Shown here piece after piece: positions 2,133-35,713 of a DNA stretch of 37,085 nt. The stretch is from Clostridia bacterium. GTDB taxonomy: Bacteria; Bacillota; Clostridia; Oscillospirales; CAG-272. Below the pieces are notes generated by a model. It did not search any database and was not told the DNA's origin. It saw only the letters and a program-made list of their open reading frames with translations. Location: NCBI GenBank assembly GCA_017453405.1, contig JAFTKF010000148.1:1-37085 (forward strand), given 5' to 3'. The position numbers and the translations under genes are program-made. How positions within the stretch are numbered: the stretch's first letter is position 1; every line of letters starts with the position of its first letter.

Positions 2133-2687
2133 ATGGAAGATCACGAAATCATCGCATTGTATGAAGCGCGCAATACCGATGCGATCGAAAAGACCCGCGA
2201 AAAATACGGCAAGCTTTGCTATCGGGTCGCTTATCATCTTTTGCATTCGCGTGAGGATGCCGAGGAGTGCGAAAACGATGCCTATCTGGATGCTTGGCAC
2301 GCAATTCCTCCCCAAAAGCCCGATCCCTTGTCGGCGTTTATGGCAATGCTGTCGCGACGCCGTGCGCTGGATCGTTACCGTAAGCGGACTGCTGAAAAAC
2401 GGCAGTATGTCTGTCTTTCACTTGCCGAACTGGATGAATGTATTCCCGACGGCAGGGCGTTCGACGAGACACTTTCGGAAAAGACACTTGTTGATATTCT
2501 CAATCGCTTTTTAAAAGAGCTGGACGAAGAGGAATGCGACATCTTTCTGCGCCGCTATTGGTATATGGATAACATCAAGGCAATTGCGCTTCGTTATGGC
2601 TATGGGCTGAGCCGCGTGAAAATGATTCTGAAACGCACGCGGGAGAAGCTTCTCAAAACGCTTGAAAGGGAGGGTATTTTCATATGA
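2133..2687 (+). CDS. RNA polymerase sigma-70 family factor, ECF-like (regions 2 and 4)
   Basis: 184 aa. RBS GGGAGG lies 8 nt upstream. Region-2-like segment EDAEECENDAYLDAWHAI; region-4 HTH DNIKAIALRYGYGLSRVKMILKRTREKL. Confidence 0.85.
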   Translation: MEDHEIIALYEARNTDAIEKTREKYGKLCYRVAYHLLHSREDAEECENDAYLDAWHAIPPQKPDPLSAFMAMLSRRRALDRYRKRTAEKRQYVCLSLAELDECIPDGRAFDETLSEKTLVDILNRFLKELDEEECDIFLRRYWYMDNIKAIALRYGYGLSRVKMILKRTREKLLKTLEREGIFI

Positions 2688-4108
2688 AATCCGATACATT
2701 ACAAAATGCACTGGGCGCGATCGATCCCGCTCTCGTTGCCCGTGCCGATCAAATGCCGAAGCGAGCGAGAAAACGCAAGCTTCGCATGGCATCGCTCGTC
2801 GCGGCAATGCTTGCGCTTGCCATCGGGCTTGGCGCGATCTTCGGCGGCGGCAGTGTTGTGCCGAGCCGCTACACATTGGCGGCGGCAATTTATCCCACAA
2901 TGGCACCATATCCCAAGGGGGAATGGCTGCCGGGCTTTGAATCCCGTTATGACGCGTGGCGGGACAGCATCAAAGAACGCCGCGCCTATTTCGGAAGCGG
3001 CAAGGATCTTGGCGACTTCTTTTCGCAAACCGCCTCGGCATTTCTTGCCGATAGCGGCGACGACAACCTTGTCTATTCACCGCTCAATGTCTATATGGCG
3101 CTCAGTATGCTGGCTGAGGTCACCGATACGGACACCCGCAAGGAAATCCTCACACTGCTTGGCTGTGACAGCATCGAAATGCTTCGCACCAAGGCAAACG
3201 CGATCTGGAACGCCAATTATTCCAATGACGGTGCCGTCACCAGCATTCTCGCAAGCTCACTCTGGCTGAGCGACAGCCTTTCCTACAACACCGATACCGT
3301 CAAGACGCTCGCCGAGACCTATTATGCCTCGTCCTTCAGCGGTAAAATGGGCAGTGCGGGCTATGACAAGGCATTCAGAAACTGGCTGAACGAGCAAACC
3401 GGCGGACTCTTGAAGGAGTATATCGATGAACTCAGCTTCACCCCCGAGACCCTGATGGCAATGGCGACCACCGTCTATTTCCAAGCCAAATGGGAAAATG
3501 AATTCCGCAAAAGCGAAAACCAAGACAAAATCTTTCACGCGCCGAGTGGGGATGTTACCTGCGAATTTATGCACGAGACCGAGGTCTACGGCGTTTATTA
3601 TTGGGGGGATTTGTTCTCCGCTACCCGCAAGCGCTTGGAGGACAGCGGCTATATGTGGTTGATCCTGCCCGACGAGGGTGTGACCTTCACCGAGCTTTTG
3701 CAAAGCGAAGAAGCGCTTCTGTTTCTTTCGTCAAACGGCGAGTGGGAGAACAAAAAAACGCTGAAGGTCAATCTGGCAGTTCCGAAATTCGAGGTATCAT
3801 CAAAGCTGGATCTTGCCAAAGGGCTGAAAGCCCTTGGGATCACAAGCTGTTTTGACAGCCGCAGAGCTGATTTTTCACCGCTGTTTGAGGAAGACACCGA
3901 GGTGTATCTTTCGAAGATCGAGCACGGGGCAACGGTTGCCATCGATGAAGAGGGCGTGATTGCCGCCGCGTATGTGGCAATGATGATGGCAGGGGGGGCA
4001 GAGCCACCCGAGGATGAGATCGATTTCGTTCTTGACCGTCCGTTTCTGTTTGTCATTACGGGCAGTGACGGTTTGCCGCTCTTTATCGGTACAGTTAACC
4101 TGCCTTGA
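2684..4108 (+). CDS. Membrane-anchored serpin (anti-sigma-like N-terminal tail, TM helix, extracytoplasmic serpin domain)
   Basis: The ATG overlaps the sigma stop (ATGA at 2684-2687). TM helix MASLVAAMLALAIGLGAIF covers aa 35-53. Serpin core: NLVYSPLNVYMALSMLAEVT. Reactive-centre-loop hinge EEGVIAAAYV at aa 422-431 (nt 3947-), followed by DRPFLFVI. Confidence 0.85.
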   Translation: MKSDTLQNALGAIDPALVARADQMPKRARKRKLRMASLVAAMLALAIGLGAIFGGGSVVPSRYTLAAAIYPTMAPYPKGEWLPGFESRYDAWRDSIKERRAYFGSGKDLGDFFSQTASAFLADSGDDNLVYSPLNVYMALSMLAEVTDTDTRKEILTLLGCDSIEMLRTKANAIWNANYSNDGAVTSILASSLWLSDSLSYNTDTVKTLAETYYASSFSGKMGSAGYDKAFRNWLNEQTGGLLKEYIDELSFTPETLMAMATTVYFQAKWENEFRKSENQDKIFHAPSGDVTCEFMHETEVYGVYYWGDLFSATRKRLEDSGYMWLILPDEGVTFTELLQSEEALLFLSSNGEWENKKTLKVNLAVPKFEVSSKLDLAKGLKALGITSCFDSRRADFSPLFEEDTEVYLSKIEHGATVAIDEEGVIAAAYVAMMMAGGAEPPEDEIDFVLDRPFLFVITGSDGLPLFIGTVNLP

Positions 4109-4284: not shown

Positions 4285-4860
4285 ATGAAAAAATTACTTT
4301 GCACACTTGCTGTTCTGGTGCTCTTAGTCGGTACGCTCGTTGTTATGAGTGCTTGCGGCGGAGCAGATACGACGGCAGAAGCAACCACCACAGCACCCGT
4401 CACCACCGTTCCCGTGATCGAAGCACCGATTCCCGATGACTACACCCTGTATGACAACGGCGATATCAGCTTTGCTTATCCCGAATCGTGGGCAAAGACC
4501 GACGGCAGTACGGTACTGCTTCAGGATGCTGTCACCGGCAACAACATCACGGTGGTCTATGAAGCGAAGAACCCCATTTACGCAACGCTTGACCTCGATG
4601 CTTACAACGAGTCCTTCAAGCCTGCATTTGAAGCAATGGGTATGACGATCACCGACGCGGCGGTTGCACAGACCGAAAACGCTTCCGGTCTTGCCATCAC
4701 CAAGATCAGCCACACCGCCACGATGTCGGGCGTGACGATGAAGCAGACAATGTACATCGCAACGGTAGGCACGAAGTCGTATACCGTAACGGTTACCGAA
4801 GTCAAAGCCGACAGCACGCTGGTATCGACAGTATTCGACACCCTGAAAGAAGTTAAATAA
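4285..4860 (+). CDS. Lipoprotein of unknown function
   Basis: RBS AAGGAG. MKKLLCTLAVLVLLVGTLVVMSACGG carries a lipobox and is followed by a Thr-rich linker. The gene has its own promoter and terminator. Confidence 0.7.
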   Translation: MKKLLCTLAVLVLLVGTLVVMSACGGADTTAEATTTAPVTTVPVIEAPIPDDYTLYDNGDISFAYPESWAKTDGSTVLLQDAVTGNNITVVYEAKNPIYATLDLDAYNESFKPAFEAMGMTITDAAVAQTENASGLAITKISHTATMSGVTMKQTMYIATVGTKSYTVTVTEVKADSTLVSTVFDTLKEVK

Positions 4861-4861
4861 C

Positions 4862-4899
4862 AAAAATCAACCGCTGTGCTTGCATAGCGGTTGATTTTT
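4862..4899 (+). terminator. Rho-independent terminator
   Basis: aaaaatcaaccgct (4862-4875) pairs with agcggttgattttt (4886-4899), and the 3' arm ends in a T-run. Confidence 0.75.
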
Positions 4900-4919
4900 G
4901 CATCGGGATATGGTATACT
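4891..4919 (+). promoter_or_regulatory. Promoter TTGATT-17-TATACT with an extended -10 (TGG), for the TIR gene
   Basis: ttgatt at 4891-4896 overlaps the 3' arm of the terminator. tatact at 4914-4919. Confidence 0.6.
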
Positions 4920-4939
4920 GAAGAAAAGGGGGCGATGGG

Positions 4940-5947
4940 ATGTTATATATCATTTACGGCTTAACTTCGGTTGTTGGCAAGGTCAGTCGACAGTATTTTA
5001 TGGGTCGCGGCATCAAGCAGATTGAAAAAATCACGTTTGAGACCGAAAACGTGCGTGTGCAACCGAGTGACGGGATTCTGCGCCGTGCGAAGAGTGAAAA
5101 AGAGGTCAGAGCCTGCGATTACGTTTATGAAAATCACGGCAGACTGGTGGGCTTCACGATGACGCAGATCGAAGAAGCGATTTCGGGCAGGCAGGATGCG
5201 TTTTTGACCTTTTCGTCCTATGACCTGTCATTTTTACGCGAGATCAAGGATGCCTGCGGCGAGCACGTGGCGATCATCTATGCGTTTTTGGAGGATGAAG
5301 CCCTGAAACGCCTGACCGATGCCATCGACACCGATGACGGGCAGAAAAGAGAACGCCTTCTGATGGGTCGCGCCATCAAGGAGCGCTATCTTGCCGAGCG
5401 CGAGCTGTTTGACGAGACGGTGATCTACTGCGGAGAAGATACGCAGTTCGATCTGGAAAGCCTGAAGGGGCAGTATGCACATATTATTCAGAAGTATAAG
5501 GGGCTTGAAAAAGAGCCGGTCCCTCTGCCGTACAAGGGCAACAAGCCCTATATTTTCGTCAGCTACGCGCGGGATGACAGCGACCGTGTGATTCCGTATC
5601 TGCGTATTTTGCAGAAGCGCGGCTGTCGCATCTGGTATGACAAAGGCATCAAAGCAGGCGATAACTGGATGACAACGCTGGCAATGAAGATCAAGGGCTG
5701 TGCGCAGTATCTTTTGTTCTCCTCCGAGATCTCAACGAAGTCAGTCTGGACACGCCGCGAAGCCTCGCGCGCCCTGCAATACCCTGAGCTTTCGATTCTG
5801 ACCGTGCGTATGGACAACGCCCGTTTTGACGAGGGTCTTGAATGGGGTCTTCAGGAATATCAGCAGCTCTTTATGAACGACCCCGACTTCGAATCCGATC
5901 TTCTGGAAAGCATCTCCGATGAAGTCATCGAACGAATCGGCGACTGA
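4940..5947 (+). CDS. TIR-domain protein with a degenerate guanylate-kinase-like N-terminal domain
   Basis: 335 aa. The TIR domain spans aa ~203-312: KPYIFVSYARDDSDRVIPYLRILQKRGCRIWYDKGIKAGDNW...LLFSSEISTKSVWTRREASRAL. The N-domain is co-linear with guanylate kinase but carries the non-canonical loop GLTSVVGK. Confidence 0.8.
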   Translation: MLYIIYGLTSVVGKVSRQYFMGRGIKQIEKITFETENVRVQPSDGILRRAKSEKEVRACDYVYENHGRLVGFTMTQIEEAISGRQDAFLTFSSYDLSFLREIKDACGEHVAIIYAFLEDEALKRLTDAIDTDDGQKRERLLMGRAIKERYLAERELFDETVIYCGEDTQFDLESLKGQYAHIIQKYKGLEKEPVPLPYKGNKPYIFVSYARDDSDRVIPYLRILQKRGCRIWYDKGIKAGDNWMTTLAMKIKGCAQYLLFSSEISTKSVWTRREASRALQYPELSILTVRMDNARFDEGLEWGLQEYQQLFMNDPDFESDLLESISDEVIERIGD

Positions 5948-5956
5948 TACAAGTAT

Positions 5957-6001
5957 AAAACCGCATCCCGACCAATTCCCGTTGGTCGGGGTGCGGTTTT
6001 A
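5957..6001 (+). terminator. Rho-independent terminator
   Basis: aaaaccgcatcccgaccaa (5957-5975) pairs with ttggtcggggtgcggtttt (5982-6000) with one G-U wobble, followed by a T-run. Confidence 0.8.
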
Positions 6002-6032
6002 TGAGAGAGAATCAAGGAGAAGGCGGCAGGAT

Positions 6033-6054
6033 CTCGGCGCGGATATGTGGTTTT
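6033..6054 (+). repeat. Intergenic repeat A, copy 1 (ctcggcgcggatatgtggtttt)
   Basis: 21 of 22 nt identical to the reverse complement of 9158-9179. Confidence 0.8.
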
Positions 6055-6062
6055 GAAACGAA

Positions 6063-6113
6063 GATTCAATCAAAAATTACCACAGAAGCCAAAAATAAGA
6101 AAAATTGTAGGGA
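6063..6113 (+). repeat. Intergenic repeat B, copy 1 (gattcaatcaaaaattaccacagaagcc...aaaattgtaggga)
   Basis: About 50 nt, in direct orientation and roughly 85% identical by eye to 15926-15975. Confidence 0.8.
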
Positions 6114-6189
6114 TTGCGGTTGGATTTTTGTATTCCTACACCCGGAGCAAATCGGTCGCGATTACATACCCAAGTGTTGATGGGGCGCG

Positions 6190-6210
6190 GACAGAGAACG
6201 CTTGTCCCTA
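6190..6210 (-). repeat. 21-nt module tagggacaRgcgtYctctgtc, inverted copy
   Basis: The reverse complement of 6190-6210 matches 15970-15990 at 19 of 21 positions. Confidence 0.7.
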
Positions 6211-6258
6211 TCGAAAATCTTGATTTTTTCTTTTCAATTCAATTTAAAATTACCGCCT

Positions 6259-6314
6259 GAAAAACAAATGCGCCGTTTTCAAACGCTGTCAGGGGGTGAA
6301 GGTTTGAAAACGGC
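6259..6314 (-). terminator. Rho-independent terminator of the AEC transporter gene (hairpin i of repeat C)
   Basis: gccgttttcaaac (6272-6284) pairs with gtttgaaaacggc (6302-6314). On the minus strand the stem is followed by gcatttgttttt. Confidence 0.7.
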
Positions 6315-6493
6315 TGATTTTGATAAAAGATATTGTTTTTCTTGGGGTGCTTTTTGAAAAAAGCTCCCGGAGTTGTTTACAACTCCAAATCCCACAAAAA
6401 CTTTTGAAATGGGTGGCAGAGGCGGTGTGTCAGCGAAAGCTTTTGCAACAAGTGACAGAGATATTGTATCAGCGAAAGCTTTTGAAATGGGTG
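6266..6493 (-). repeat. Repeat C, copy 1: conserved 3'-UTR element (39-bp tandem units, hairpin ii, terminator hairpin i)
   Basis: Aligns along its length with the reverse complement of 15628-15816. The 39-bp units start at 6401, 6440 and 6479. The element begins 13 nt after the AEC stop at 6507. Confidence 0.8.
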
Positions 6494-6506
6494 TTTCGGT
6501 CGGGTT

Positions 6507-7496
6507 TTACGCGAGGACGCCCAGGTAGCGGAGGAGGAAGGTGGCGAGAAAGACGGTGAAGGCGGAAACGATCGTGGTGAAAATGACGATCTGACCGGCG
6601 AGGGCAGTGTCGCTTTTCATTTCCTGCGCCATAGCAACACTGGATACGGCGACGGGTGTGGCAAAAACCGCAACGAGTGAGGCGAACTCCGCGCCGCCAA
6701 AGCTGTCGCGGAAGAAGGCATAGGCGATGCCAAGTCCTGCGGCGGGGACAACAATGCCGCGGATCACGGTTGCGAACAGGATCTCCTTTTTGTATTTCGA
6801 AACCGAGGAAAATTCAAACTGTGCGCCGAGCACGAGAAGCGCCATTGGCGTGGCAACACGCGAGAGGTATTCGAGAAGCGTATACAGCGGTGCGATGTCG
6901 GTTAGACGGAAGCGGATATCCGCAAGTACAAACAGCTTGCGCACAAGCAGTGTGACAAGTCCGACAAAAATGCTGATGATCAGGGGATTTCTGACAATAT
7001 CCAATACGATCTCCCGTACCGAGACCTTTTTGCCGTCCTTGTGAAAGAGGGACAGACTGATCACGCCGAGGATATTATACGTTGGCACGATCGCTGCCGA
7101 CAACAGCGAAGCCGCAATAGCGCCTTCTTCACCGAACAGCGCGGTCGCAAGCGGAATGCCGACCAGTGCGTAGTTGGAGCGGAATGTTCCCTGCAAAAGC
7201 GGACCGCGATGCTCGGCATCCTTGGTGATGAGCATCACGAGCAATGCGCCCACAAGAAAGATCACAGCGGTGAACACCGTGGCATACAGCACATAACCGA
7301 GATTCACAGCGGCAAGATTGCCGATTCCGTAGATATTCAAAAACAGCATCGCGGGCAAAAACACGCGAAAGACAAGCTTATTGGCAGCTTTGGCAAAGCT
7401 TTCGGAAATAAGACCGAGCTTTTTTAAGACGTATCCCAAGAGAACGGTAAGGATGATCGGCATCACGGCGTTAATAGCGAACAGTAAGGATTCCAT
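6507..7496 (-). CDS. AEC (auxin efflux carrier) family permease
   Basis: Start chosen at MESLLFAINAVMPIILTVLLGYVLKK (ATG at 7494-7496) after RBS AAGGAGGG. The protein is polytopic throughout. The longer ORF start at 7541 would lie inside the promoter. Confidence 0.85.
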   Translation of the reverse strand: MESLLFAINAVMPIILTVLLGYVLKKLGLISESFAKAANKLVFRVFLPAMLFLNIYGIGNLAAVNLGYVLYATVFTAVIFLVGALLVMLITKDAEHRGPLLQGTFRSNYALVGIPLATALFGEEGAIAASLLSAAIVPTYNILGVISLSLFHKDGKKVSVREIVLDIVRNPLIISIFVGLVTLLVRKLFVLADIRFRLTDIAPLYTLLEYLSRVATPMALLVLGAQFEFSSVSKYKKEILFATVIRGIVVPAAGLGIAYAFFRDSFGGAEFASLVAVFATPVAVSSVAMAQEMKSDTALAGQIVIFTTIVSAFTVFLATFLLRYLGVLA

Positions 7497-7529
7497 ATGC
7501 CCTCCTTTTTCAAAAGCTTTGATAGCAAA

Positions 7530-7558
7530 AGTATAGCACATCGGGTGCTGTTTGTCAA
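7530..7558 (-). promoter_or_regulatory. Consensus promoter TTGACA-17-TATACT for the AEC gene
   Basis: On the minus strand, ttgaca is the complement of 7553-7558 and tatact is the complement of 7530-7535. Confidence 0.7.
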
Positions 7559-7591
7559 GAATTCACGAAAAAGACTTGATTTGACAAACAG
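7548..7591. repeat. Perfect 11-bp inverted repeat ctgtttgtcaa / ttgacaaacag covering both divergent -35 boxes
   Basis: 7548-7558 is the reverse complement of 7581-7591, with 22 nt between them. Confidence 0.85.
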
Positions 7592-7609
7592 GAGAAAATA
7601 TGCTATACT
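7581..7609 (+). promoter_or_regulatory. Consensus promoter TTGACA-17-TATACT for the GH5 gene
   Basis: ttgaca at 7581-7586 and tatact at 7604-7609. Confidence 0.7.
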
Positions 7610-7638
7610 ATCCTATCAGATAAGGTGAGGTGATATGC

Positions 7639-8943
7639 GTGAAAAGGGCGTTTTTACAGTGTCTTATGATGCTGCTATTGGCAGCTGTTTTGGTATCCTG
7701 TGCGCAATCGGGCAACACGGACGAAACGGCACGGGATACGACAAAAGAAGCAATCGAAACGACAGTAACAGTGGAGGTAACGGTGGAAGATCGCATTTTA
7801 TACGTGGAAGACGGCAAGATCATCGACAAAAACGGGGACGAGGTGGTGCTTTGTGGCATCAATCTCGGCGGCTGGCTCTTGCAGGAAACTTGGATGTGTG
7901 CCGTTGTCGGCTCGGAATGCAACGAGGATTCCTTCAAGCTTTTGCAGGATCGCGGCTTTACCGATGACGAGATCGCGACGCTGTTTGCAAGCTACGCCGA
8001 TCACTACATCACCGAACGGGATATTAAAATCATTGCCGAGCTTGGCTTGAACTGTCTGCGCGTGCCCTTCTGGTATCGCAATTTTATGCGCGAGGATCTG
8101 ACCTACTACACAAGCGATCCCGACGAAAACCCGGGCTTTCGCTATCTTGACCGCGTGATTGCTTGGGCGGAGCACTATGGACTGTATGTCATTCTGGATA
8201 TGCACGGCGCGCCGGGTGGGCAGTCGACTGATCACTGCTGTGGCAGTATCGGCAAAAATGAACTGTACACAAGCGAGGACAATCTTGCCGCGATGGAAGA
8301 TCTGTGGGTGAAGCTTGCCACGCGTTACCGCGACAGCGTGACGGTTGCCGCCTATGATATTATGAATGAGCCGATGAACAACAGCACCGAGTTCGAAAAC
8401 GGTTGGGCGGCAGGCAGTGACGAGGCAATTGCCAAAACGCTTATGGTCTATCGCCGTATGATCCGCGCGATCCGCGCAATTGATCCCGAACATATCATCA
8501 CAATTGAGGGGATCTGGTCAATGACCTATCTGCCCGATCCTGCCAAAGAGGGCTGGACCAATATGATGTATCAGCTGCATCTTTACGACACGACCAAGGA
8601 AATGATCGATTACCGTATTGCCGAAATGGTCAAGGCGCGTGACGAATACGGGGTTGCCATCTATGTCGGCGAATACAATAATGGCGATGACAATCAGGTA
8701 TATGCGTATACGAAGTACCGCACCGAGAATATCTCCCGTACCGCGTGGACCTATAAGACCGCCAAGGGCAATCAGGGGAACTGGTCGCTGTATTATTCCT
8801 CCACCCCGCCCGCCGATCTCGCCAACGATTCCTATGACGAGATCCTCAGAAAGTGGGGCGACTGCCTTTTGACCGAATCCAATGGCTGGACACGCAACAC
8901 CACCCTGCGCGGCTGGCTGATGCGCTACAGCAAACCCACCTGA
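7639..8943 (+). CDS. GH5 family glycoside hydrolase (exo-beta-1,3-glucanase-like), lipoprotein
   Basis: I prefer the GTG at 7639 (MKRAFLQCLMMLLLAAVLVSCAQ, lipobox) because it sits 5 nt after GGTGAGGTGA. The track start at 7630 has no RBS spacing. GH5 motifs: LNCLRVPFWY, DMHGAPGGQS, YDIMNEP (acid/base Glu), YVGEYN (nucleophile Glu). Confidence 0.8.
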   Translation: MKRAFLQCLMMLLLAAVLVSCAQSGNTDETARDTTKEAIETTVTVEVTVEDRILYVEDGKIIDKNGDEVVLCGINLGGWLLQETWMCAVVGSECNEDSFKLLQDRGFTDDEIATLFASYADHYITERDIKIIAELGLNCLRVPFWYRNFMREDLTYYTSDPDENPGFRYLDRVIAWAEHYGLYVILDMHGAPGGQSTDHCCGSIGKNELYTSEDNLAAMEDLWVKLATRYRDSVTVAAYDIMNEPMNNSTEFENGWAAGSDEAIAKTLMVYRRMIRAIRAIDPEHIITIEGIWSMTYLPDPAKEGWTNMMYQLHLYDTTKEMIDYRIAEMVKARDEYGVAIYVGEYNNGDDNQVYAYTKYRTENISRTAWTYKTAKGNQGNWSLYYSSTPPADLANDSYDEILRKWGDCLLTESNGWTRNTTLRGWLMRYSKPT

Positions 8944-8953
8944 AAAGCGAACG

Positions 8954-8986
8954 AAAACGCCCTGAAGCCCGTCTTCAGGGCGTTTT
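8954..8986 (+). terminator. Rho-independent terminator
   Basis: aaaacgccctgaag (8954-8967) pairs with cttcagggcgtttt (8973-8986). Confidence 0.8.
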
Positions 8987-9055
8987 GCTGTCAGCGCCCA
9001 CAGCGCAAGTGCGAGCGAAGCAAACGCCACGGTGCGGCGTTTGCGTATGTCAACC

Positions 9056-9091
9056 GGAGTTCATTGTGCGGTATATCGCGCAATGAACTCC
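9056..9091. repeat. Orphan perfect hairpin ggagttcattg-N14-caatgaactcc
   Basis: An 11-bp perfect stem (9056-9066 with 9081-9091). The loop can pair further (gcg/cgc). Confidence 0.7.
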
Positions 9092-9157
9092 ACGCTGAGC
9101 CACACGAGGCGGGATCCAGCCCCACTTCGAGCGTAGACTTTTCTTGAAGTAACTTCG

Positions 9158-9179
9158 AAAACCACATATCTGCGCCGAG
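9158..9179 (-). repeat. Intergenic repeat A, copy 2 (inverted)
   Basis: The reverse complement, ctcggcgcagatatgtggtttt, matches 6033-6054 at 21 of 22 positions. Confidence 0.8.
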
Positions 9180-9194
9180 CGTTCCACGTTGTAT

Positions 9195-9228
9195 AAAATT
9201 ACACCCTCGACCGAGCGGTCGAGGGTGT
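9195..9228 (-). terminator. Terminator of the esterase gene
   Basis: acaccctcgacc (9201-9212) pairs with ggtcgagggtgt (9217-9228). On the minus strand the stem is followed by aatttta. Confidence 0.65.
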
Positions 9229-9249
9229 TGTGCGTATTTAGATATGAGA

Positions 9250-11898
9250 TCAGTCTTTTTGAATGGCTTCTACCAGCATTTCGGAAAGCAGGGCGTAGCC
9301 TTCTTCGTTGAGGTGGAGTTGATCGCGGAAGCCCATATTTGCCATATCCTTGCCTGCCTCCTTCATCGCGGCGGCAAAGTCGACGATCACGAGGTTGTCG
9401 TGATCGATGGCATAGTCGGCAACAATGGCGTTGGACACGGCGTATTCCTCCCATTTATCGGGGAAGCGCTCGTTGTCGCAGACCGTCACGTAGTACACTG
9501 TGGCATTGGGGAACAATTCCTGCAAGCCCTCGATGACCGCGATCACATCATAGCCGCAGACAGAGCCTGCTTTGCCGCGGTCGATGTCGTTGACACCGAT
9601 GTGCAAAACGATGTTTTCGGGATCATACAATGTCAGCTGAGACATTGCGGCAAACCAATCGCCGGTTTCTGTGCCGCCGACACCGATCGTAACCGCGTCG
9701 AGGACATTCATTTGTCTGTCAAAATGCTGCCACGAGGTCTTGGATGTATAGCTGTCACCAAGCACCAGCGTCTTGACGGCAAGCTTTTCTTCCTTCTCGG
9801 TATGAACAAGGCGCATGGTGTGTAGAATGGCACCATCCTCGCGGGCATAGAGATTGATCGTATGCTCACCGGCATAGGGGATCGTGATCTTCCAGGTTTC
9901 GTGCTGTAACATCTTGCCCGGACCGACCGCAATGGAATCGGTCAGCGCGATGATCGCGCCGCCATCCACGCTGATGAAGACAGAGTCGGCTGTCGCGCTC
10001 TTGAAGCTTGTCATCAGTGAAACATAGTATTCACCGGGTGTGGAAAAGTCGATCACATAGGATGCCTTGGGGGAAATATTGTTGGTTGCCCACTGTACGC
10101 CCGAATCGGGATAGATCTGAATACCGGGATAGGCAACGCTTCTTTCCCAAATAAAATCGTGCGCAATATTATTGGCTCTGCCGCTGACGGTATAAGCATA
10201 TTTTCCGTTTCGAAGGGCATCAACGAGATTCACCGTGACCTCGCCGTCCACTTCCCGATACAGTGCCGTTGTTTCGGCAGTCCCCCTCTCGCTCACCGTC
10301 TCTTCACTGCCGTCGGTAAAGCTTTCGTCTTCCGAGGTGGACAGCACGATCTGATGCAGCAGTACGCCGTCCTCACGCACAAATACCGTCACGGTGTGCT
10401 CGCCGGGGGTTTCGACATCCACATACCACAGCGTATTGCCGCTCCATCTGCCCTCGCCGACGATATCGCGGCTGTCGGTACAGGCGACAAGTGCGCCGCT
10501 GTCAAGGCTGACATAGACCGAATTGCTGGTGGTGTTGGGGTGGCTTGACAGGAAATAGAGATAATAGCGACCCGTCGTTTCGAATTTGACGGTATAATGA
10601 AGCTGGGGCGCTTCGGCAAAGGCATAGTTGGCTTCCCAGAAATTGTTGAAGGACGGTGTTTGTTCAATGCCGTCAAGAGTGGTTGCCGCGGCGGCAAACG
10701 AAAGGTTCGCGCCTGCCGAGGAATACGCGGCATAGGGCGACAGCTCAAGTGCCGACGAGGCGTTGATCACCACCTTGCCGTCCTTTTCAAGAAACGCGCC
10801 CGAGGCAATCTCTTCCTCTTCATAATAGCGCTGACAGTCGGGCTTTTTGCCGTTTTTGACGAAATACGCCATGTTGTTACCGGCATCCTTGCCGATCAGC
10901 TCATAGCCTGCCTGATTGAAATGGAATTCGTCCTTCATATAGCCATAGCGGTGAAGATCGGGCAGAATGAGCGAAAGGACGGTTGCATCCTCGCTGTCCT
11001 CGCAGAACAAGATCTGCGCATCGCGGATGGTATTGTATTTCGCGCGGCGACTGCCGTCACTGCCGTTATATGTGCCGATCGGGATCACAAAGGTTTCACT
11101 TGCGCCAATATCTTCCTTGAAGCCTTCGACGATGCGTGCAAGCGCTTCGGTATAGGTATCGCCTGCCACATTCTTGTCGCCGTCCGATTCGCCCTGCAGA
11201 AAGACCACATAGGTGTTCTTCAGCTTGAAGGCTTCCTTGCCGCTTTCATATTCCGCTTTCAAAAACGCCTTAGCGGCTTTGACGCGTTCGACGGCATCGT
11301 CATAGACTTCCGTGCCCACATCAAAGAAGCTGATCTGTTCTCCGCCCTTGGCGCAGGACACCGCCACAATGGGCGTGCCGGTTGCCTGATAGTAGCTTTC
11401 ACAGAATGCCGACACCAAAGAGCCGGTCTTTTTATTTTCGGTGACGCCGCTTGCGGCGTTATTTTCGTTCACGCCGAAGGGCTCGGTGACAGGATACAGC
11501 TTGGTCGGATCGGAGATCGCACGGAATTCATACGCGTGACCTTCGGGCACGACCGTGGCATCTGCCGCGTTGCCTCTGCCTGCCATATTGGACTGACCGA
11601 TAAAGAGCACAAGATCAACCCCTGCTTCGTCAGGCTCGGTGACCGGGGGCGTGATCGGGTCGGTCACGGCAGTCGTCGCGGTCGGCGTCGTGATCGGATC
11701 AACCTCGTCGGTCGTTTCGGGGGTGGTTTCGGTTGCTGTTTGTTGCGTAGTGGTACCCGGTGAGGTCACGGGATTTTTCACATCGTCGCTTGTCAATGCC
11801 GTCGTTGTCTCTCCGTCACCGCAGCCTACCAAAAGCATCGGCACTAAGAGAAGAAGTGCAAGGAGCAAAGTCAAAATCGCACGCAGTTGTTGTTTCAT
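9250..11898 (-). CDS. Multidomain carbohydrate esterase lipoprotein: SASA/DUF303-type acetylesterase, two beta-sandwich (CBM-like) repeats, SGNH/GDSL esterase
   Basis: Start at MKQQLRAILTLLLALLLLVPMLLVGCG (ATG at 11896-11898) after RBS GGAGAC. SASA motif LVLFIGQSNMAGRG. Internal duplicates lie at nt ~10336-10803 and ~9799-10263 (YYLYFLSS...EHTVTVFVREDGVLLHQIVL versus YYVSLMTS...EHTINLYAREDGAILHTMRL). SGNH motifs: LVLGDSYT, GVGGTETG, HIGVNDI, DQLHLNEEGY. Confidence 0.8.
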   Translation of the reverse strand: MKQQLRAILTLLLALLLLVPMLLVGCGDGETTTALTSDDVKNPVTSPGTTTQQTATETTPETTDEVDPITTPTATTAVTDPITPPVTEPDEAGVDLVLFIGQSNMAGRGNAADATVVPEGHAYEFRAISDPTKLYPVTEPFGVNENNAASGVTENKKTGSLVSAFCESYYQATGTPIVAVSCAKGGEQISFFDVGTEVYDDAVERVKAAKAFLKAEYESGKEAFKLKNTYVVFLQGESDGDKNVAGDTYTEALARIVEGFKEDIGASETFVIPIGTYNGSDGSRRAKYNTIRDAQILFCEDSEDATVLSLILPDLHRYGYMKDEFHFNQAGYELIGKDAGNNMAYFVKNGKKPDCQRYYEEEEIASGAFLEKDGKVVINASSALELSPYAAYSSAGANLSFAAAATTLDGIEQTPSFNNFWEANYAFAEAPQLHYTVKFETTGRYYLYFLSSHPNTTSNSVYVSLDSGALVACTDSRDIVGEGRWSGNTLWYVDVETPGEHTVTVFVREDGVLLHQIVLSTSEDESFTDGSEETVSERGTAETTALYREVDGEVTVNLVDALRNGKYAYTVSGRANNIAHDFIWERSVAYPGIQIYPDSGVQWATNNISPKASYVIDFSTPGEYYVSLMTSFKSATADSVFISVDGGAIIALTDSIAVGPGKMLQHETWKITIPYAGEHTINLYAREDGAILHTMRLVHTEKEEKLAVKTLVLGDSYTSKTSWQHFDRQMNVLDAVTIGVGGTETGDWFAAMSQLTLYDPENIVLHIGVNDIDRGKAGSVCGYDVIAVIEGLQELFPNATVYYVTVCDNERFPDKWEEYAVSNAIVADYAIDHDNLVIVDFAAAMKEAGKDMANMGFRDQLHLNEEGYALLSEMLVEAIQKD

Positions 11899-16195: not shown

Positions 16196-17125
16196 ATGTG
16201 TTTGACAACCCATTTTGATTTTGAATCACAACCTGCCAAAGAGCAGAACCTTTCCTTTTCCGACAGCTCGTGGGAATTTGACCTGAAGGGGGTCTTTTTT
16301 AATCCCACCGCTTCGCCCTTCTGCACACCTGAGGGCAGCTATACCGCTCTTGCACTGCTCTTGTCCGACCAATGTCCCTTTTCGGTCAGGATCGTGCGCT
16401 TTGACGATACCTGCCGTTACCGTGTCACGGAAGAGCGTGTGTTCGGCGGATCGCTCCTTCGCCAGATCAACGATGTCAGAGATTATGTCGATATGCTCGT
16501 TGCAGACAGCACGAATGTCACCTACCCCGAAAACGCTCTGCACGAAGTGATTCTCAACGCGATCCTGCACCGCGATTACACGCTTTCTGCCGATATTTTC
16601 ATCAAGCTGTATCCCGATCAGCTGGAAATTCTCTCCCCCGGCGGTCTTTGTGAAGGGCTGACGGGCGAGGATATGGCAATGGGACTTTCCGTCTGCCGCA
16701 ATCCGCAGCTTTTCGAAATCTTCAAGCAACTGAAGCTTACCACCGGCTGTGGCGTCGGACACCGTATCCTGCTGGATGCCTACCGCAGCTTGAATACCCC
16801 CACGATCACCTGCAGTCCCCGTGCCGTCAGGGTCACGATGCCGCACGCCAATAAGGAAGTGCCCCCGCTTGCCAAAGCGCCCGCAGCACCCGTCAAGGAA
16901 GCGCCCGCAGTACCCGAAAAGACCGACACCGTCACCCCCTATACCTCCGAGGACGAAACCGTTCTCAGAATGGTACGCGCGTCGGGCAGTATCACCCGTC
17001 AGGATGTGGAAAAGGCATTCGGAACAAGCCCTTCCACCGCTTCCCGACTTCTGCGCCGTATGGCAGAAGCAGGCATCCTGAAGCCCATCGGTTCGGCAAG
17101 AAGCACCAAGTATATCTTGGCATAA
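16196..17125 (+). CDS. Putative regulator with an HATPase_c_4-like (RecG-C-like) domain and a C-terminal winged HTH; apparently lacks the usual N-terminal AlbA_2/Schlafen module
   Basis: RBS AGGAGA. Motifs: ENALHEVILNAILHRDY, LEILSPGGL, RNPQLFEIFKQLKLTTGCGVGHRILLDAY. The C-terminus ETVLRMVRASGSITRQDVEKAFGTSPSTASRLLRRMAEAGILK is MarR-like. Confidence 0.6.
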   Translation: MCLTTHFDFESQPAKEQNLSFSDSSWEFDLKGVFFNPTASPFCTPEGSYTALALLLSDQCPFSVRIVRFDDTCRYRVTEERVFGGSLLRQINDVRDYVDMLVADSTNVTYPENALHEVILNAILHRDYTLSADIFIKLYPDQLEILSPGGLCEGLTGEDMAMGLSVCRNPQLFEIFKQLKLTTGCGVGHRILLDAYRSLNTPTITCSPRAVRVTMPHANKEVPPLAKAPAAPVKEAPAVPEKTDTVTPYTSEDETVLRMVRASGSITRQDVEKAFGTSPSTASRLLRRMAEAGILKPIGSARSTKYILA

Positions 17126-20830: not shown

Positions 20831-23770
20831 ATGGATCTCAGAACCGCTTTGCCAAACGGCTCGCAGTTACAGTTTCCCTCAATGACGGTAACGCTGGAAT
20901 GCGAGGTCGGGCGTGGCTCTAATGCCATCGTATACCGAGGAACGTATCCCGATCTGCAAAGCCATACGCTTCATCATATTCTGATTAAAGAACTCTTTCC
21001 CCTTCATCCCGAGGCAAGGATCTACCGAACCGAGGATGGCTCGCTTTGCTATGCGGAGGCTGAGGACTTTTTTCGCTTTCACAAGCTGAGCTTTGAGAAA
21101 GGCAATACCGTCCATCTGAAGATCTTATCGCACAGTCCCGACGGCGCAGGCGGCAATGTCAATACCTTCTCTTATAACCGCACGCTGTATACGGTGCTGC
21201 AGTATAACGGCGGCAGAAGTCTTGCCGACGAGCTTGACGCCCATACCTTCACACTCGCGCAGGTCGTCAAAGCGATGAAAGGCATTTTGTACGCGCTGAG
21301 GGATTTCCACCAAAACGGCTTTCTTCATCTGGATATCGCGCCCGACAATATTATGCTTCTCGGCACAAATGAGCGCGAGCGCATTATGCTGATCGATTAT
21401 AACAGCGCCATGGAGCAGTCGGTATGGCAAACGCATTTCAGTATCAAGCAAGGCTATTCCGCCCCCGAGGTACAGCGCGGCGATGTCGCCGCCTTTACCC
21501 CTGCCACCGATCTCTATTCGGTTGCCGCCGTCTTTTTCAGATGCATCAGGGGATATGCGCTTCAGCCCTTTGAAGTCCACCGGAAAACGCCCCCTGCCGT
21601 TTCTCACTGCAAGATCCTGCAGGGCTTGCCCGAGACCTGCATCAGTATGGTCAAAGAGATCCTGTATCGCGGCTTATCCGCGATCGGGGCAAGGCGCTAC
21701 GCTACCGTAGACGAAATGCTCGTTGCCTTTGAGGAGCTTGACGACCGCATCCAAGGTGTCGGCATTACCCATTGGGCGCTTTGGGAGGCAGGCAAGCGAA
21801 CCGTGCAAAGCTTGATTCAAAGCAACACCGCTCTTCGGTATCTGCGCGACGGGGAATCGCTCTTCCCTATGTTCACGCAGTCCGAGACCGATGGGCGAAA
21901 ATCAATGGATGCTTCCATCCGTGCGCTCACAGACGGCGAAAGCCATCTGTTCGTGAGTGCGCCCGGCGGTATGGGCAAAACCACCTCGATGCTTTATGCG
22001 CTTTTGCAGAGCAGTAAGCGCTATTCTCCCCAATCGCCTGCCATCGTGTATCTGTCGTTACACGGCGCTTGCGCGGATTCTCATACCGTTACCGATAAAA
22101 TTCTTGAAAATCTTCACTTCAAAGCCAATGTTCAAAACTACCGTGAGGCGCGTCACGCACTGCACCAACTGCTGACAAAGCCCTTGGTGCACGACGGCGG
22201 TACACGCCCTTGTGTCGTACTGTTCCTTGACGGGCTGAACGAAGTCAGCGAAGGCGTTTCCTATCTTCTTGACGAGATCGCCTCGCTTGCAAGGCTTGAC
22301 GGCATCCGACTGTACATCACCTCGCGCACCGACTGCGCGCTTGAGGGCTTTCGTCACCTGCAGCTCTCACCTCTCACGCTTGGCGAGGTACAGACCGTCC
22401 TCACACGCCATCACTTGCTGATGCCCGATTCCCCCACGATGCAAGAGCTTTTGAGAACACCGATCATGCTTTCGATGTTTCTCGGGCTTTCCGAGCAAAA
22501 CGGCACACAGCCGCAGGCAAAAAGCGGCGAGGAGCTGGTGGAAGCCTATCTCGACTCTCTTGTTCAGAAAGAGCTTGCCACTCTGCCCGAGGACAGCTCC
22601 CTGCGCCTGAAGATCGAAGTCGCCGTACAGCTTGTGCTTCCGAGAATTGCCGCAAGGCTTCAGAAATCGGGACTGCCCTGCGACGATGCCGCGCTGTTCA
22701 AGGAAAGCGCCGCCGCGTATCGCCTGATCCGCTCGCCCCTTCTCATTAAAGCCTTTCCGCAGTGGATCGGACACAAACGCACGATCCTCGACGGGATCGA
22801 ATCCGCCGACGACTGGTATGATATCCTTGTACGGAAATTACTGTGGCAACGGCTCGGACTGCTGATCAAAAACGAGCAAGGGCAATATGTGCTCGCGCAT
22901 CAGATCATCACCGACCATCTCGCGGCGGGGCATACCGCCATAAAAAAAAGGATTGTTCGCTATCAGGCGATCAAGCACAGCCTGATCGCTGTCATTTGCC
23001 TTGTGCTTGCGGGAGCGATCGCCCTCGCCTGTGTGAAGAGCGCTCCCGACCCCGCCATTCCCTATCAGGAATCTTACGCCATAACGGTATTGACCGACGC
23101 ATTGAACGCCTATCAGGTGTCAAGCCTGCAGTACAGCGCGATCCGCAAGCTGACCGATGCCCTTGCCGAAACGCCCGAGGCGTATGCCGCATCCCTTGCG
23201 GAATATGAGCATTCGTCAAAGTTTATCAGCGCCAACCTGCCCTCCGGCGCCTATCAGAGCCGAGTCGAGCTGCTTCTTGCAAGCGGCGAGGTGTTTGAAT
23301 GGACACAGCAGGAGCTGCAAACCGAAGAATATCTCCAATTATTCACCCTGATCGAAGAACGAGAGGTGCAATATGCCGATATCGTAGGCGCGTTTTCGTA
23401 TATGATGCACGATGATACCGTCTTTTCAAAATACGGCGAGGCGTATACAAAAACGGTGTCGGACCTCATCGAGCTTGATGCCGAGATCACCGCTACCCTG
23501 TATGCCATCGCCTGCCGCGCCCATTTGTACGCGGCAATGGATGCCTTTTCGCAAAGCGGCGACGAGGTCAAAGCAATGCACGTCAACAGCTGGACTGCCG
23601 TTTTAAGCGCAACCCATCCGATCAACGACCGTGTTCCCACCGAGGAAAGCCCCATTGCCTTACGCGACCGCTTGCAGAACCTTATGGGAAAACGAAAGGA
23701 TCAATACCTTAATTTACAAAGCCAAGGGGCTTATATTCTCTATCAAAATCAAAAGGAGACACCATCATGA
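20831..23770 (+). CDS. Protein kinase / NACHT (STAND) NTPase / TM helix / extracytoplasmic C-terminal domain protein
   Basis: RBS AGGAGG. Kinase motifs: VGRGSNAIVY, ILIKE, HLDIAPDN, DYN, SAPE. NACHT motifs: SAPGGMGKTT, VVLFLDGLNE, YITSR, LLRTPIMLSMF. TM helix SLIAVICLVLAGAIALACV at aa 717-735 (nt 22979-23035). Confidence 0.85.
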   Translation: MDLRTALPNGSQLQFPSMTVTLECEVGRGSNAIVYRGTYPDLQSHTLHHILIKELFPLHPEARIYRTEDGSLCYAEAEDFFRFHKLSFEKGNTVHLKILSHSPDGAGGNVNTFSYNRTLYTVLQYNGGRSLADELDAHTFTLAQVVKAMKGILYALRDFHQNGFLHLDIAPDNIMLLGTNERERIMLIDYNSAMEQSVWQTHFSIKQGYSAPEVQRGDVAAFTPATDLYSVAAVFFRCIRGYALQPFEVHRKTPPAVSHCKILQGLPETCISMVKEILYRGLSAIGARRYATVDEMLVAFEELDDRIQGVGITHWALWEAGKRTVQSLIQSNTALRYLRDGESLFPMFTQSETDGRKSMDASIRALTDGESHLFVSAPGGMGKTTSMLYALLQSSKRYSPQSPAIVYLSLHGACADSHTVTDKILENLHFKANVQNYREARHALHQLLTKPLVHDGGTRPCVVLFLDGLNEVSEGVSYLLDEIASLARLDGIRLYITSRTDCALEGFRHLQLSPLTLGEVQTVLTRHHLLMPDSPTMQELLRTPIMLSMFLGLSEQNGTQPQAKSGEELVEAYLDSLVQKELATLPEDSSLRLKIEVAVQLVLPRIAARLQKSGLPCDDAALFKESAAAYRLIRSPLLIKAFPQWIGHKRTILDGIESADDWYDILVRKLLWQRLGLLIKNEQGQYVLAHQIITDHLAAGHTAIKKRIVRYQAIKHSLIAVICLVLAGAIALACVKSAPDPAIPYQESYAITVLTDALNAYQVSSLQYSAIRKLTDALAETPEAYAASLAEYEHSSKFISANLPSGAYQSRVELLLASGEVFEWTQQELQTEEYLQLFTLIEEREVQYADIVGAFSYMMHDDTVFSKYGEAYTKTVSDLIELDAEITATLYAIACRAHLYAAMDAFSQSGDEVKAMHVNSWTAVLSATHPINDRVPTEESPIALRDRLQNLMGKRKDQYLNLQSQGAYILYQNQKETPS

Positions 23771-25011
23771 AGCACCGTTTTCTCGTCCTCTGCGTGCTTT
23801 TGCTTCTTTTCGCTGTGACGCTCTCCCTCGTCGCTTGCAACGATACCCCTGCGACAAGCACGCCCACCACAAGCGCGTCCTCCGTAAGCACACCCGAAAC
23901 CACCGAAGCACCCCCTTCGACAGATGCCGTCGATGAAGCCTTCCGACGCACGTTTGCCGCAGACTGGTCTAAGTATCTGGTTCACAAGGAAAGCCTGTGC
24001 CTTGATATGTCCTGGATGCTTTCGTATGTGGAAGCCTTTTATGAACAGCCAAGCCTTTCCACACTGACCAACGCAAGAGCCGCCCTCGGTTCTCTGGAAG
24101 CACATTGGGCAGAGCTCAGCTTTCCCACCTACACGCTCACGCCCGAACAGCACACCGAGCTTATCGCGGCAGGCTATGATGTGAGCGGCATATGGGAGGA
24201 AATGAATCGCTGGGAGAGCAGTATGACAGAATTTCTTGACACCTGCCAGATCCTTTTTTCCGACCTTTACTTCAACGCCTTCTTCACGCCCTCCTTTCAG
24301 GGCTGTCAAAAATATACCCAAAATGCCATCACAGGTGTGGAGATCACGCTGGAGCAATTGGCGGTATTTACCGACAACGTGATCCTTTCTCTGAAAAGCG
24401 AGACCATCAGAGACGACTTTTTGGCATTCATTCAGGAGAACACGCCTGCCGTGGCAAAGTATTTGCCCGCATTCTCCCAAACGCTTTCGGCAAATGCCGA
24501 ACGTCAGGAGGCGGTGCTCGATAAGCTGGAAGCCAATATCAACGAGCTGAACACGATCGTGGGTGAGCTTACGGTCGCGGCAGATCAGCTTGCCGATCTC
24601 TTCGCCACCAATAATATCGAACAGCTCACCGCATCGCTCGTCGATCTCGGGGACGGTTTTTGTTTCCCGCTTCCCTTCTTTGATTACAGCAAGGACACCT
24701 TCTTCTATTTCTATTCGGACGGTGACACTCAGGATATCTTCGCCCCCCAAGCACCCATCACCCTGACACCGAACCGTTTGGTGATCGAATCGGCGGTTTC
24801 CAAAGAAGACCATACAGAGTATCTTGAAATCTTACTCTTGCTCGGCTTCACCCCCGTCCTCACCGACGACAGCGATACAGCCCTCCTCTCTTACTACAAG
24901 CTTGACGACGACAACAGCGTCCTGATTGAGTGGGAAGATCAGGTGATGACCTTCATCATTGTCGGCGCGGATATTTATCCTCTCCCGCAGTACTGCTTCT
25001 ACGCTTCCTGA
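23767..25011 (+). CDS. Lipoprotein of unknown function, translationally coupled to the kinase-NACHT gene
   Basis: ATGA overlap at 23767-23770, with RBS AAGGAGA. MKHRFLVLCVLLLLFAVTLSLVAC carries a lipobox, followed by a Thr/Ser/Pro linker, then a helical region and a beta-rich tail. Confidence 0.75.
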   Translation: MKHRFLVLCVLLLLFAVTLSLVACNDTPATSTPTTSASSVSTPETTEAPPSTDAVDEAFRRTFAADWSKYLVHKESLCLDMSWMLSYVEAFYEQPSLSTLTNARAALGSLEAHWAELSFPTYTLTPEQHTELIAAGYDVSGIWEEMNRWESSMTEFLDTCQILFSDLYFNAFFTPSFQGCQKYTQNAITGVEITLEQLAVFTDNVILSLKSETIRDDFLAFIQENTPAVAKYLPAFSQTLSANAERQEAVLDKLEANINELNTIVGELTVAADQLADLFATNNIEQLTASLVDLGDGFCFPLPFFDYSKDTFFYFYSDGDTQDIFAPQAPITLTPNRLVIESAVSKEDHTEYLEILLLLGFTPVLTDDSDTALLSYYKLDDDNSVLIEWEDQVMTFIIVGADIYPLPQYCFYAS

Positions 25012-35653: not shown

Positions 35654-35684
35654 ACCTCCGCTCCTTTCTTCCTTTTGTAAGTCC

Positions 35685-35713
35685 ATTATACCACGGCTGT
35701 CAAAAGAAATCTA
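35685..35713 (-). promoter_or_regulatory. Extended -10 promoter (TGGTATAAT) with a weak -35 (TAGATT)
   Basis: On the minus strand, tataat is the complement of 35685-35690, followed by a 17-nt spacer and tagatt as the complement of 35708-35713. Confidence 0.4.

Follow-up and report, generated by a model that had tools for sequence, protein, structure and literature searches.

The window studied here, a whole stretch of 37,085 nucleotides from a Clostridia bacterium (Oscillospirales, CAG-272; assembly GCA_017453405.1, contig JAFTKF010000148.1, positions 1 to 37,085 of the forward strand), carries a gene for a 335-aa protein in which a guanylate kinase (GK)-like domain is fused to a TIR domain. 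We regard it as quite probable that this protein is a regulated NAD+-consuming TIR enzyme with a non-catalytic GK-like input domain. We also lean, with less assurance, towards the full reading, in which a dead GK (as sensor) and a TIR domain (as NAD+-cleaving enzyme, NADase) form a single-polypeptide switch directed against invaders. The protein would then be a TIR effector whose input domain is a pseudo-kinase not described before; it belongs to a small family of gut Clostridia. Full-text literature searches revealed no paper describing a GK-like-TIR fusion; the nearest mention concerns sporadic SLOG-guanylate kinase fusions in phages (PMC9503650). Nor do Pfam, NCBIfam or PADLOC list the GK-like-TIR architecture, in line with an earlier note on this DNA, which had found no named system to assign it to.

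Judged by its sequence, the segment comprising aa 205-318 is a bona fide TIR domain, as it matches Pfam TIR_2 (PF13676) with E=2.5e-14 and 54.3 bits (cutoff 28). In a phmmer search against PDB sequences, aa 205-274 were aligned with the TIR domain of AbTir, and W270-T-R-R-E274 fell on W-T-N-Y-E of that enzyme. The WxxxE motif of AbTir consists of W204 and the catalytic E208; mutating S140, D167, W204 or E208 abolishes its NADase activity, for which R151 is required as well (PMC11374754). Four of these five critical residues are kept in the protein studied here (S140, D167, W204 and E208 correspond to S208, D234, W270 and E274), and the constellation of enzymatic NADase TIRs (Ser in beta-A, Asp at the start of the BB-loop, WxxxE in alpha-C) is present in full. 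The Glu that the earlier note had placed at the catalytic position is indeed encoded by a GAA codon and aligns with AbTir E208. Furthermore, E274 is invariant in two family alignments (30/30 and 20/20 members), and S208 and D234 are likewise invariant across the family. The close family keeps W270; more distant members have Val at this position, while E274 remains invariant in them as well. The closest experimentally tested TIR that we found is that of the Sel1-TIR protein HMPREF0367_01592 from Eubacterium cylindroides (35% identity over 117 aa), for which ADPR (ADP-ribose) is listed as the NADase product in vitro (Weagley et al. 2022, PMC9092222). The two proteins share the signature 'KPYIFVSY...RIW[YF]D.GI.AG..W' but differ in their N-termini, which consist of Sel1 repeats in the Eubacterium protein and of the GK-like domain here. 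As the catalytic residues are conserved and a related enzyme is active, the TIR domain probably destroys NAD+.

The N-terminal domain could not be named by sequence models. Pfam, NCBIfam and PADLOC returned nothing on aa 1-200 (Pfam remained blank even at E<=1), and the sole marginal match of the N-domain profile in the PDB was the GK domain of Dlg1 (E=0.55). A fold search and a bridging homologue were more successful. In the AlphaFold2 model, which was built on 30 family members (mean pLDDT 89, pTM 0.75), the N-domain is a guanylate kinase at the level of the fold: ranks 1-42 of the Foldseek search against the PDB are all guanylate kinases (E ~1e-6, probability 1.0, 13-19% identity, TM by target 0.6-0.68), followed by MAGUK GK domains (3wp1, 4wsi) and a SPARTA TIR (8spo). 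In the viral structure library BFVD, those of the best matches that have a name are guanylate kinases, too. When the N-domain profile was compared with E. coli Gmk using hhalign (the Gmk sequence used was checked and is identical to that of PDB 2an9), aa 63-169 were paired with Gmk 75-174 at E ~1e-3 and a probability of 12-20%, which leaves the residue-level map of the old GMP site at low confidence. The bridge at the level of sequence is the distant relative P0106, which passes Pfam Guanylate_kin (27.1 bits vs 25.2) and keeps the motif GAPGCGKS; P0107, the other most distant relative, possesses an intact Walker A as well (GTSGCGKS). Both proteins (387 aa and 540 aa, respectively) carry GK-like domains duplicated in tandem, and, of the relatives that bear a P-loop, they stand closest to the dead N-domain.

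Compared with Gmk (PF00625), the N-domain has the same fold and the same order of core, nucleoside monophosphate (NMP)-binding and lid elements, an alignable 'G-x-x-x-G-[FT]', a lid Arg (R139) and an 'FD' before the last strand, and it is linked to Gmk in sequence by the homologue that passes PF00625. Descent from guanylate kinase is part of the explanation that fits best. In contrast to Gmk, which stands alone, the domain is fused to TIR, has no Pfam match, and lacks the motifs needed for catalysis. In the alignments (MAFFT with P-loop relatives; hhalign with Gmk), G7-L-T-S-V-V-G13-K14 overlies the consensus G/A-x-x-G-x-G-K-S, so that the Walker Lys column is occupied by G13, and K14 comes one position late; the Ser of Walker A is missing, too. 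Neither G13 nor K14 is conserved, these two positions being SR, TK, GW, RR, GE, GN or GA in family members, and ahead of helix 1 conservation is restricted to Y-G7-L-T. According to DSSP, helix 1 starts at residue 10 already, which implies that the phosphate-binding loop has collapsed. The GMP-binding motif S-x-T-T-R-x-P-R is absent, and in the low-confidence alignment V70 and F72 stand in place of Y82 and T84 of Gmk, the two residues of the GK 'Y-G-T' motif that bind the GMP phosphate. None of the three marks of an enzymatic guanylate kinase that were looked for (PF00625 match, Walker A, GMP residues) was found, and on the strength of these motifs we consider the kinase activity of the N-domain lost.

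Nevertheless, the domain is well preserved. The residues G7, K30, Y63, G67, G71, F72, G83, K103, R139, G143, F157 and D158 form a conserved set; the counterparts in the alignment with Gmk are the lid Arg R149 for the invariant R139 and Y163-D164 for F157-D158. In an unsaturated pair of orthologues (L002 vs L006), dN/dS was 0.09 for the N-domain and 0.07 for TIR. The degenerate domain is therefore functional and under purifying selection as strong as that acting on the effector. This is the pattern of a pseudo-enzyme that serves in binding or regulation. There is a precedent in the MAGUK GK domain, whose former GMP site accommodates phosphopeptides: in PSD-95, Dlg and ZO-1, as proposed here, a GK fold without catalysis is reused as a binding module. 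However, the bacterial lineage is independent, and the fusion partner is TIR rather than SH3 or PDZ; the likeness is one of mechanism and does not count as evidence for homology beyond the shared GK ancestry. A structure of a Firmicute guanylate kinase with ppGpp among the fold matches suggested (p)ppGpp sensing, an idea that we rejected, as the residues of the GMP site used by ppGpp are not conserved.

The earlier note had seen the N-terminal ~190 aa as co-linear with guanylate kinase, with a degenerate P-loop and no S-x-T-T-R segment, and had proposed that this part serves in sensing or as a scaffold and is no enzyme. The fold search that it called for did find a P-loop-kinase fold, and the description of the P-loop could be sharpened to the assignment of G13 to the Lys column. 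The proposed role has gained from the family-wide loss of the Walker Lys, the low dN/dS, and the occurrence of the same N-domain in fusion with a different, effector-like C-terminal domain (see below).

The gene and its signals are arranged as follows:

4285-4860: lipoprotein-like gene upstream of the TIR gene

4861-4900, plus strand: intrinsic terminator hairpin of the lipoprotein-like gene, setting it apart from the TIR gene, with a perfect 18-bp stem (dG -26.7 kcal/mol, z -7.4) and a U-tract behind it

4891-4919, plus strand: candidate sigma-70-like promoter TTGATT-17 nt-TG-n-TATACT, a consensus match only (9/12 positions, extended -10 TG)

4925-4932, plus strand: ribosome-binding site AAAGGGGG, a good Shine-Dalgarno sequence 7 nt before the ATG, read from the sequence

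4940-5947, plus strand: coding sequence of the 335-aa GK-like-TIR protein, from the list of open reading frames (ORFs), homologues and dN/dS

4940-5500, plus strand: N-terminal GK-fold domain (aa 1-187) without the Walker-A Lys, proposed sensor or regulatory module

5501-5551, plus strand: linker (aa 188-204) with the motif L-P-Y-x-G just before TIR strand A

5552-5893, plus strand: TIR domain (aa 205-318; Pfam TIR_2), proposed NAD+-cleaving effector

5759-5761, plus strand: GAA codon of E274, predicted as the catalytic Glu in W270-x-x-x-E274 from the alignment with AbTir E208

5955-6002, plus strand: intrinsic terminator of the TIR gene, a 22-bp stem (dG -36.9 kcal/mol, z -10.0) followed by UUUUAU

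Since a very stable hairpin with a U-run is present on each side, the TIR gene is a transcription unit of its own. This bears out the insulation by its own promoter and two terminators noticed before; the position 4891, given then as the start of the feature, corresponds to the promoter-like site, and the coding sequence begins at 4940. Between the terminator of the TIR gene and the end of a convergent Mem_trans gene, ~500 nt (5990-6506) contain no convincing ORF, no Rfam match and no tRNA (neither Rfam families nor tRNAs were detected anywhere in the window), and two terminator-like hairpins are located there on the minus strand (6389-6366 and 6286-6270).

Homologues of the protein are rare and confined to one type of habitat. 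We found 32 full-length homologues (36-73% identity) from gut or rumen Clostridia metagenomes, and an exhaustive phmmer search with aa 1-197 yielded 73 cluster representatives among 1.84 billion. In a genome scan with one genome per GTDB species, full-length copies were present in ~27 species; the scan was seeded with the alignment A1, the broad alignment A2 being too divergent for this purpose. The carriers include Oscillospiraceae, Acutalibacteraceae, Ruminococcoides, Faecousia, Faecalibacterium, Fusicatenibacter, Eubacterium, Dorea and Blautia, as well as one member of the Eggerthellaceae. The distribution is thus patchy and crosses phyla within one habitat (Oscillospirales, Lachnospirales, one Eggerthellaceae). 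One locus (L029) contains tandem paralogues, and further TIR genes are located nearby in two others (L025 and L017). In an Acutalibacteraceae metagenome-assembled genome (L022, 10001-11032), a member is split into ORFs of 114 aa and 220 aa, which is due either to pseudogenization or to an assembly error. No matches to the N-domain were found in phage and plasmid collections, and no matches to the family among the viral contigs of IMG/VR.

At least three architectures of the N-domain can be distinguished: GK-like-TIR (~335 aa), GK-like-TIR-helical/TPR-TIR (~690-820 aa), and GK-like-coiled coil followed by a 270-aa all-helical domain (~500 aa; P0076, P0077, P0089, P0101, P0110). The helical domain is characterized by the invariant motifs 'DFSG..I.ATSALE.ELK' and 'YRN.AAH' (Rx4H), and elsewhere it is joined to Sel1, LRR_5, receiver (REC) or large uncharacterized N-termini (alignment A5, with ~45 further relatives). 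The TIR subfamily, too, is carried on other modules, e.g., the Sel1 repeats in E. cylindroides. Such a combination of a constant N-module with exchangeable C-modules of a toxic type, and the converse, is the combinatorial signature of conflict systems, and from this shuffling of effectors and sensors we argue that the GK-like domain is the input module.

The 270-aa domain may tentatively be called HEPN-like, on account of the Rx4H motif and a weak match to Pfam HEPN_Swt1 (E=0.17). However, its AlphaFold2 model (pLDDT >90) has no significant fold match in the PDB, the best relevant one being the HEPN toxin RnlA (probability 0.54, E=2.3). The motifs fit, and the identity of this alternative effector as HEPN is unproven. 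The domain possibly defines an undescribed family of HEPN-like effectors.

We next consider the mechanism suggested by these features. The TIR domain would be a latent NAD+ glycohydrolase with E274 as the catalytic residue, active only upon self-association of TIR domains, through which the active site would be formed. Self-association is known to activate other bacterial TIRs (AbTir filaments, TIR-STING, TIR-SAVED, SPARTA). The GK-like domain, incapable of ATP-dependent phosphotransfer, would act as the input module in either of two ways, or in both. In the first, the trigger (a nucleotide-like ligand, a protein or a peptide) would bind to the former NMP-binding cleft, as in MAGUK GK domains; in the second, the GK-like domain would hold TIR inactive until the trigger arrives. 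The trigger would thus induce oligomerization and NAD+ breakdown, resulting in growth arrest, and the likeliest setting would be an abortive-infection-type defence against phages or other invaders. The linker between the domains hints at a fixed arrangement, as P197, Y198 and G200 of its L-P-Y-x-G motif are invariant or nearly so in the alignments A1 and A2, the motif abuts TIR strand A, and the pTM of the predicted model is 0.75.

The defence reading draws support from the patchy cross-phylum spread, the tandem paralogues, the split pseudogene, the fast divergence of the gene and the neighbours of its distant members. At the site between the S10 ribosomal-protein operon and proS, where GK-like-TIR proteins of close relatives are encoded, these proteins are 62% identical, compared with 69-73% for AroE/DHQS and 95-98% for ProRS, L2 and L3; the gene diverges faster there than the neighbouring enzymes do. 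Defence-type neighbours were found in at least four of ~20 loci of distant relatives (a raw count). Among 132 neighbour proteins, single PADLOC matches were obtained for SspE, a type IV restriction endonuclease, HEC-06, SoFic, WYL and PDC-S11, and one distant member (L035) adjoins GmrSD. The association with defence islands is suggestive and not established.

Several large proteins are encoded close to distant members. Upstream of the GK-TIR homologues in L017 (6637-9639) and L018 (6684-9707), there are genes for ~1000-aa proteins of the Card1-like nuclease type, the domain itself being present in L018. The protein encoded at 11907-16340 in L032 contains a protein-kinase domain, and related proteins of ~1000-1500 aa recur beside three distant members (L017, L018, L032); two of these large proteins match PADLOC CARF_PDDEXK models. 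In L023, a 1395-aa protein beginning with DUF4062 (5671-9855, minus strand) is encoded divergently from the GK-TIR homologue (9968-11002). According to two 2026 preprints, DUF4062 acts in the Swarozyc defence system as a TIR-like NADase, so that two NADase-type genes would stand side by side in this locus.

A number of observations weigh against the reading that we prefer. In the window and at the sites of the closest relatives (60-73% identity), the gene is surrounded by housekeeping or carbohydrate-utilization genes: an ECF-type sigma factor with a membrane serpin, the lipoprotein-like ORF, a Mem_trans permease, GH5 and other carbohydrate-active enzymes in the window, and the S10 operon/proS (three species), asnB and glgB, or an SNF transporter and a PHP phosphoesterase in the relatives. 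No mobile-element or defence genes are immediately adjacent in these cases, and in one lineage the gene is syntenic across species, behaving there as a stable chromosomal gene. The GC content of the TIR gene (0.50-0.52) is the same as that of its flanks. The AbTir residue R151 is not kept, I218 being aligned in its place. PADLOC and NCBIfam recognize the TIR part alone, and weakly. Finally, the residue map of the old GMP site relies on profile alignments of low probability. As to the question, raised in the earlier note, whether homologues always occur in non-defence contexts, the distant members beside defence genes speak against this, whereas the closest homologues are found in housekeeping contexts.

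A first alternative is that the protein is a non-immune, physiological enzyme of gut Clostridia involved in NAD+ metabolism or signalling. Its GK-like domain would report the metabolic state, e.g., the level of guanine nucleotides or alarmones, and TIR would adjust NAD+ or produce ADPR or cyclic ADPR (cADPR) isomers that serve regulation within the cell or interactions with the host or the community. The housekeeping surroundings of close relatives, the position at the S10 operon-proS conserved in several species, the strong purifying selection on both domains, the lack of a compositional anomaly and the absence from the phage, plasmid and viral-contig collections are all in accordance with this. 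Furthermore, TIRs of gut commensals with measurable NADase products have been documented without a proven role in defence (PMC9092222). However, the family is spread in patches and not throughout a clade, it includes a pseudogene and tandem duplications, and its divergence exceeds that of the neighbouring enzymes; the swap to an RNase-like effector is hard to reconcile with an NAD-specific physiology, and the residues with which real guanylate kinases contact GMP and ppGpp are not retained. We regard this explanation as rather unlikely.

A second alternative, which we consider improbable, is a Thoeris-like generator, in which TIR would make a messenger of the cADPR or His-ADPR type for an effector whose gene lies elsewhere in the genome. 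Among the PADLOC and NCBIfam models, ThsB and ThcB4 do match the TIR part best, and W270 is kept in the close family, the equivalent Trp of AbTir being required for the production of cADPR isomers (PMC11374754). These matches, however, are weak: the PADLOC models ThsB and PDC-S66 match the TIR part only, with E-values of 1e-5 to 1e-7 (1e-19 for the ~700-aa relatives), and ThcB4 reaches 26.8 bits against a cutoff of 220. In more distant members, W270 is changed to Val, with E274 invariant. Moreover, no genes for ThsA, SLOG, SIR2, Macro, SAVED, STING or a cyclase are present in the window, as the earlier note had stated for the neighbourhood with respect to known TIR partners. When all ORFs within 6 kb in 28 loci were clustered all-against-all, no conserved partner gene was found, the only recurrences being due to synteny among close relatives; three apparently shared ORFs (L013, L015, L019) proved to be antisense artefacts of the family gene itself. 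The family gene is thus a single-gene unit.

The same evidence separates the protein from the known systems. It shares with the TIR NADase effectors (AbTir, TIR-STING, TIR-SAVED, TIR-APAZ/SPARTA) a domain of the TIR_2 type, the S/D/WxxxE constellation and the logic of a sensor joined to TIR. However, where these have STING, SAVED, APAZ-Ago or a coiled coil as the sensor, the protein studied here has a dead GK, and no cyclase, Argonaute or other partner gene is encoded in the window. Neither the ThsA + ThsB pair of Thoeris (weak ThsB matches, no ThsA in the window, no recurrent gene in the 28 loci) nor the nucleotide-sensing domain (SAVED, STING or the CAP12 N-terminus) with a neighbouring cyclase that marks CBASS or Pycsar TIR effectors was found, the models SAVED_TIR and CAP12 being aligned with the TIR region only. 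As partner genes are lacking and the models of these systems align to the TIR region only, the protein is not a Thoeris, CBASS, Pycsar or SPARTA component. Nor, by the same kind of profile comparison, is it PADLOC PDC-S66, since that profile, like ThsB, is aligned over the TIR region alone (profile positions 134-244 of 282) and does not cover the N-domain.

That the N-domain is still an enzyme, i.e. a kinase or phosphotransferase for nucleotides or other small molecules whose phosphate-binding loop is atypical, coupled to the chemistry of TIR, is hardly to be expected, for although the overall GK fold, R139 (~R149) and F157-D158 (~Y163-D164 of E. coli Gmk) are retained and P0106 and P0107 keep an intact Walker A, a non-conserved Gly stands in the Walker Lys column, nothing but Y-G-L-T is conserved before helix 1, no sequence model of a kinase family matches, and the ligands of the GMP phosphate have been replaced.

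A regulated NADase with a dead GK as its input domain remains our preferred reading, and an extension of it can be conceived. The dead GK might be a portable immune sensor placed on different effectors, be it a TIR NADase, two TIRs or a HEPN-like RNase, in its boldest form as a decoy of the essential Gmk of the host: a phage factor directed at guanylate kinase or at the metabolism of guanine nucleotides would bind to the GK-like domain and in this way cause NAD+ depletion. We offer this as a speculative possibility, more doubtful than plausible at present.

Several other genes of the window deserve mention. A 979-aa protein with an N-terminal Ser/Thr protein-kinase domain and a long uncharacterized C-terminus is encoded at 20831-23770 (plus strand); the next ORF (23767-25011, plus strand; 414 aa, no match to any family) overlaps with its start the stop of this gene. 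The kinase domain matches the PADLOC kinase models PD-T4-6, mad6 and MkoA (best E=1.7e-19); this may be a kinase-type defence gene 15 kb away from the TIR gene. A kinship with the large kinase of L032 was considered and dismissed, the similarity being that of generic kinase domains only. An ECF-type sigma factor gene (2133-2687, plus strand) overlaps by 4 nt with the gene at 2684-4108 (plus strand), whose 474-aa product has a membrane anchor at its N-terminus and a complete serpin domain (Pfam Serpin, 1.4e-60); a sigma factor together with an anti-sigma-like serpin would be an unusual pairing. The 309-aa protein encoded at 16196-17125 (plus strand) combines HATPase_c_4 with a MarR-type helix-turn-helix and resembles Schlafen/AlbA_2-like regulators, with weak PADLOC matches to PNTD models associated with prokaryotic Argonautes (E=2.5e-10). 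Finally, the 322-aa protein encoded at 34718-35686 (minus strand) consists of an N-terminus similar to the Mor transcription activator and BspA-type LRR_5 repeats; LRR_5 also occurs as an N-module in the HEPN-like effector family (P0112).

TIR enzymes are used in the immunity of bacteria, plants and animals alike, and the systems in which they participate differ in how they are switched on. In the compact 335-aa, single-gene case described here, the switch would be a pseudo-enzyme derived from a core kinase of nucleotide metabolism. The interest of this is moderate, since sensor-TIR fusions are numerous and the function of the protein is inferred only. If the GK-like domain is the receptor of the trigger, it would constitute a new class of sensors in bacterial immunity and the second independent conversion of a guanylate kinase into a binding module; should it prove to be a portable sensor as well, the family would provide an independent bacterial parallel to the change from enzyme to binding module in MAGUK GK domains. 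The hosts are poorly studied gut Clostridia whose defence repertoires are largely uncharted, and the protein may offer a tractable system for asking which signal makes a commensal gut anaerobe fire NAD+ depletion.

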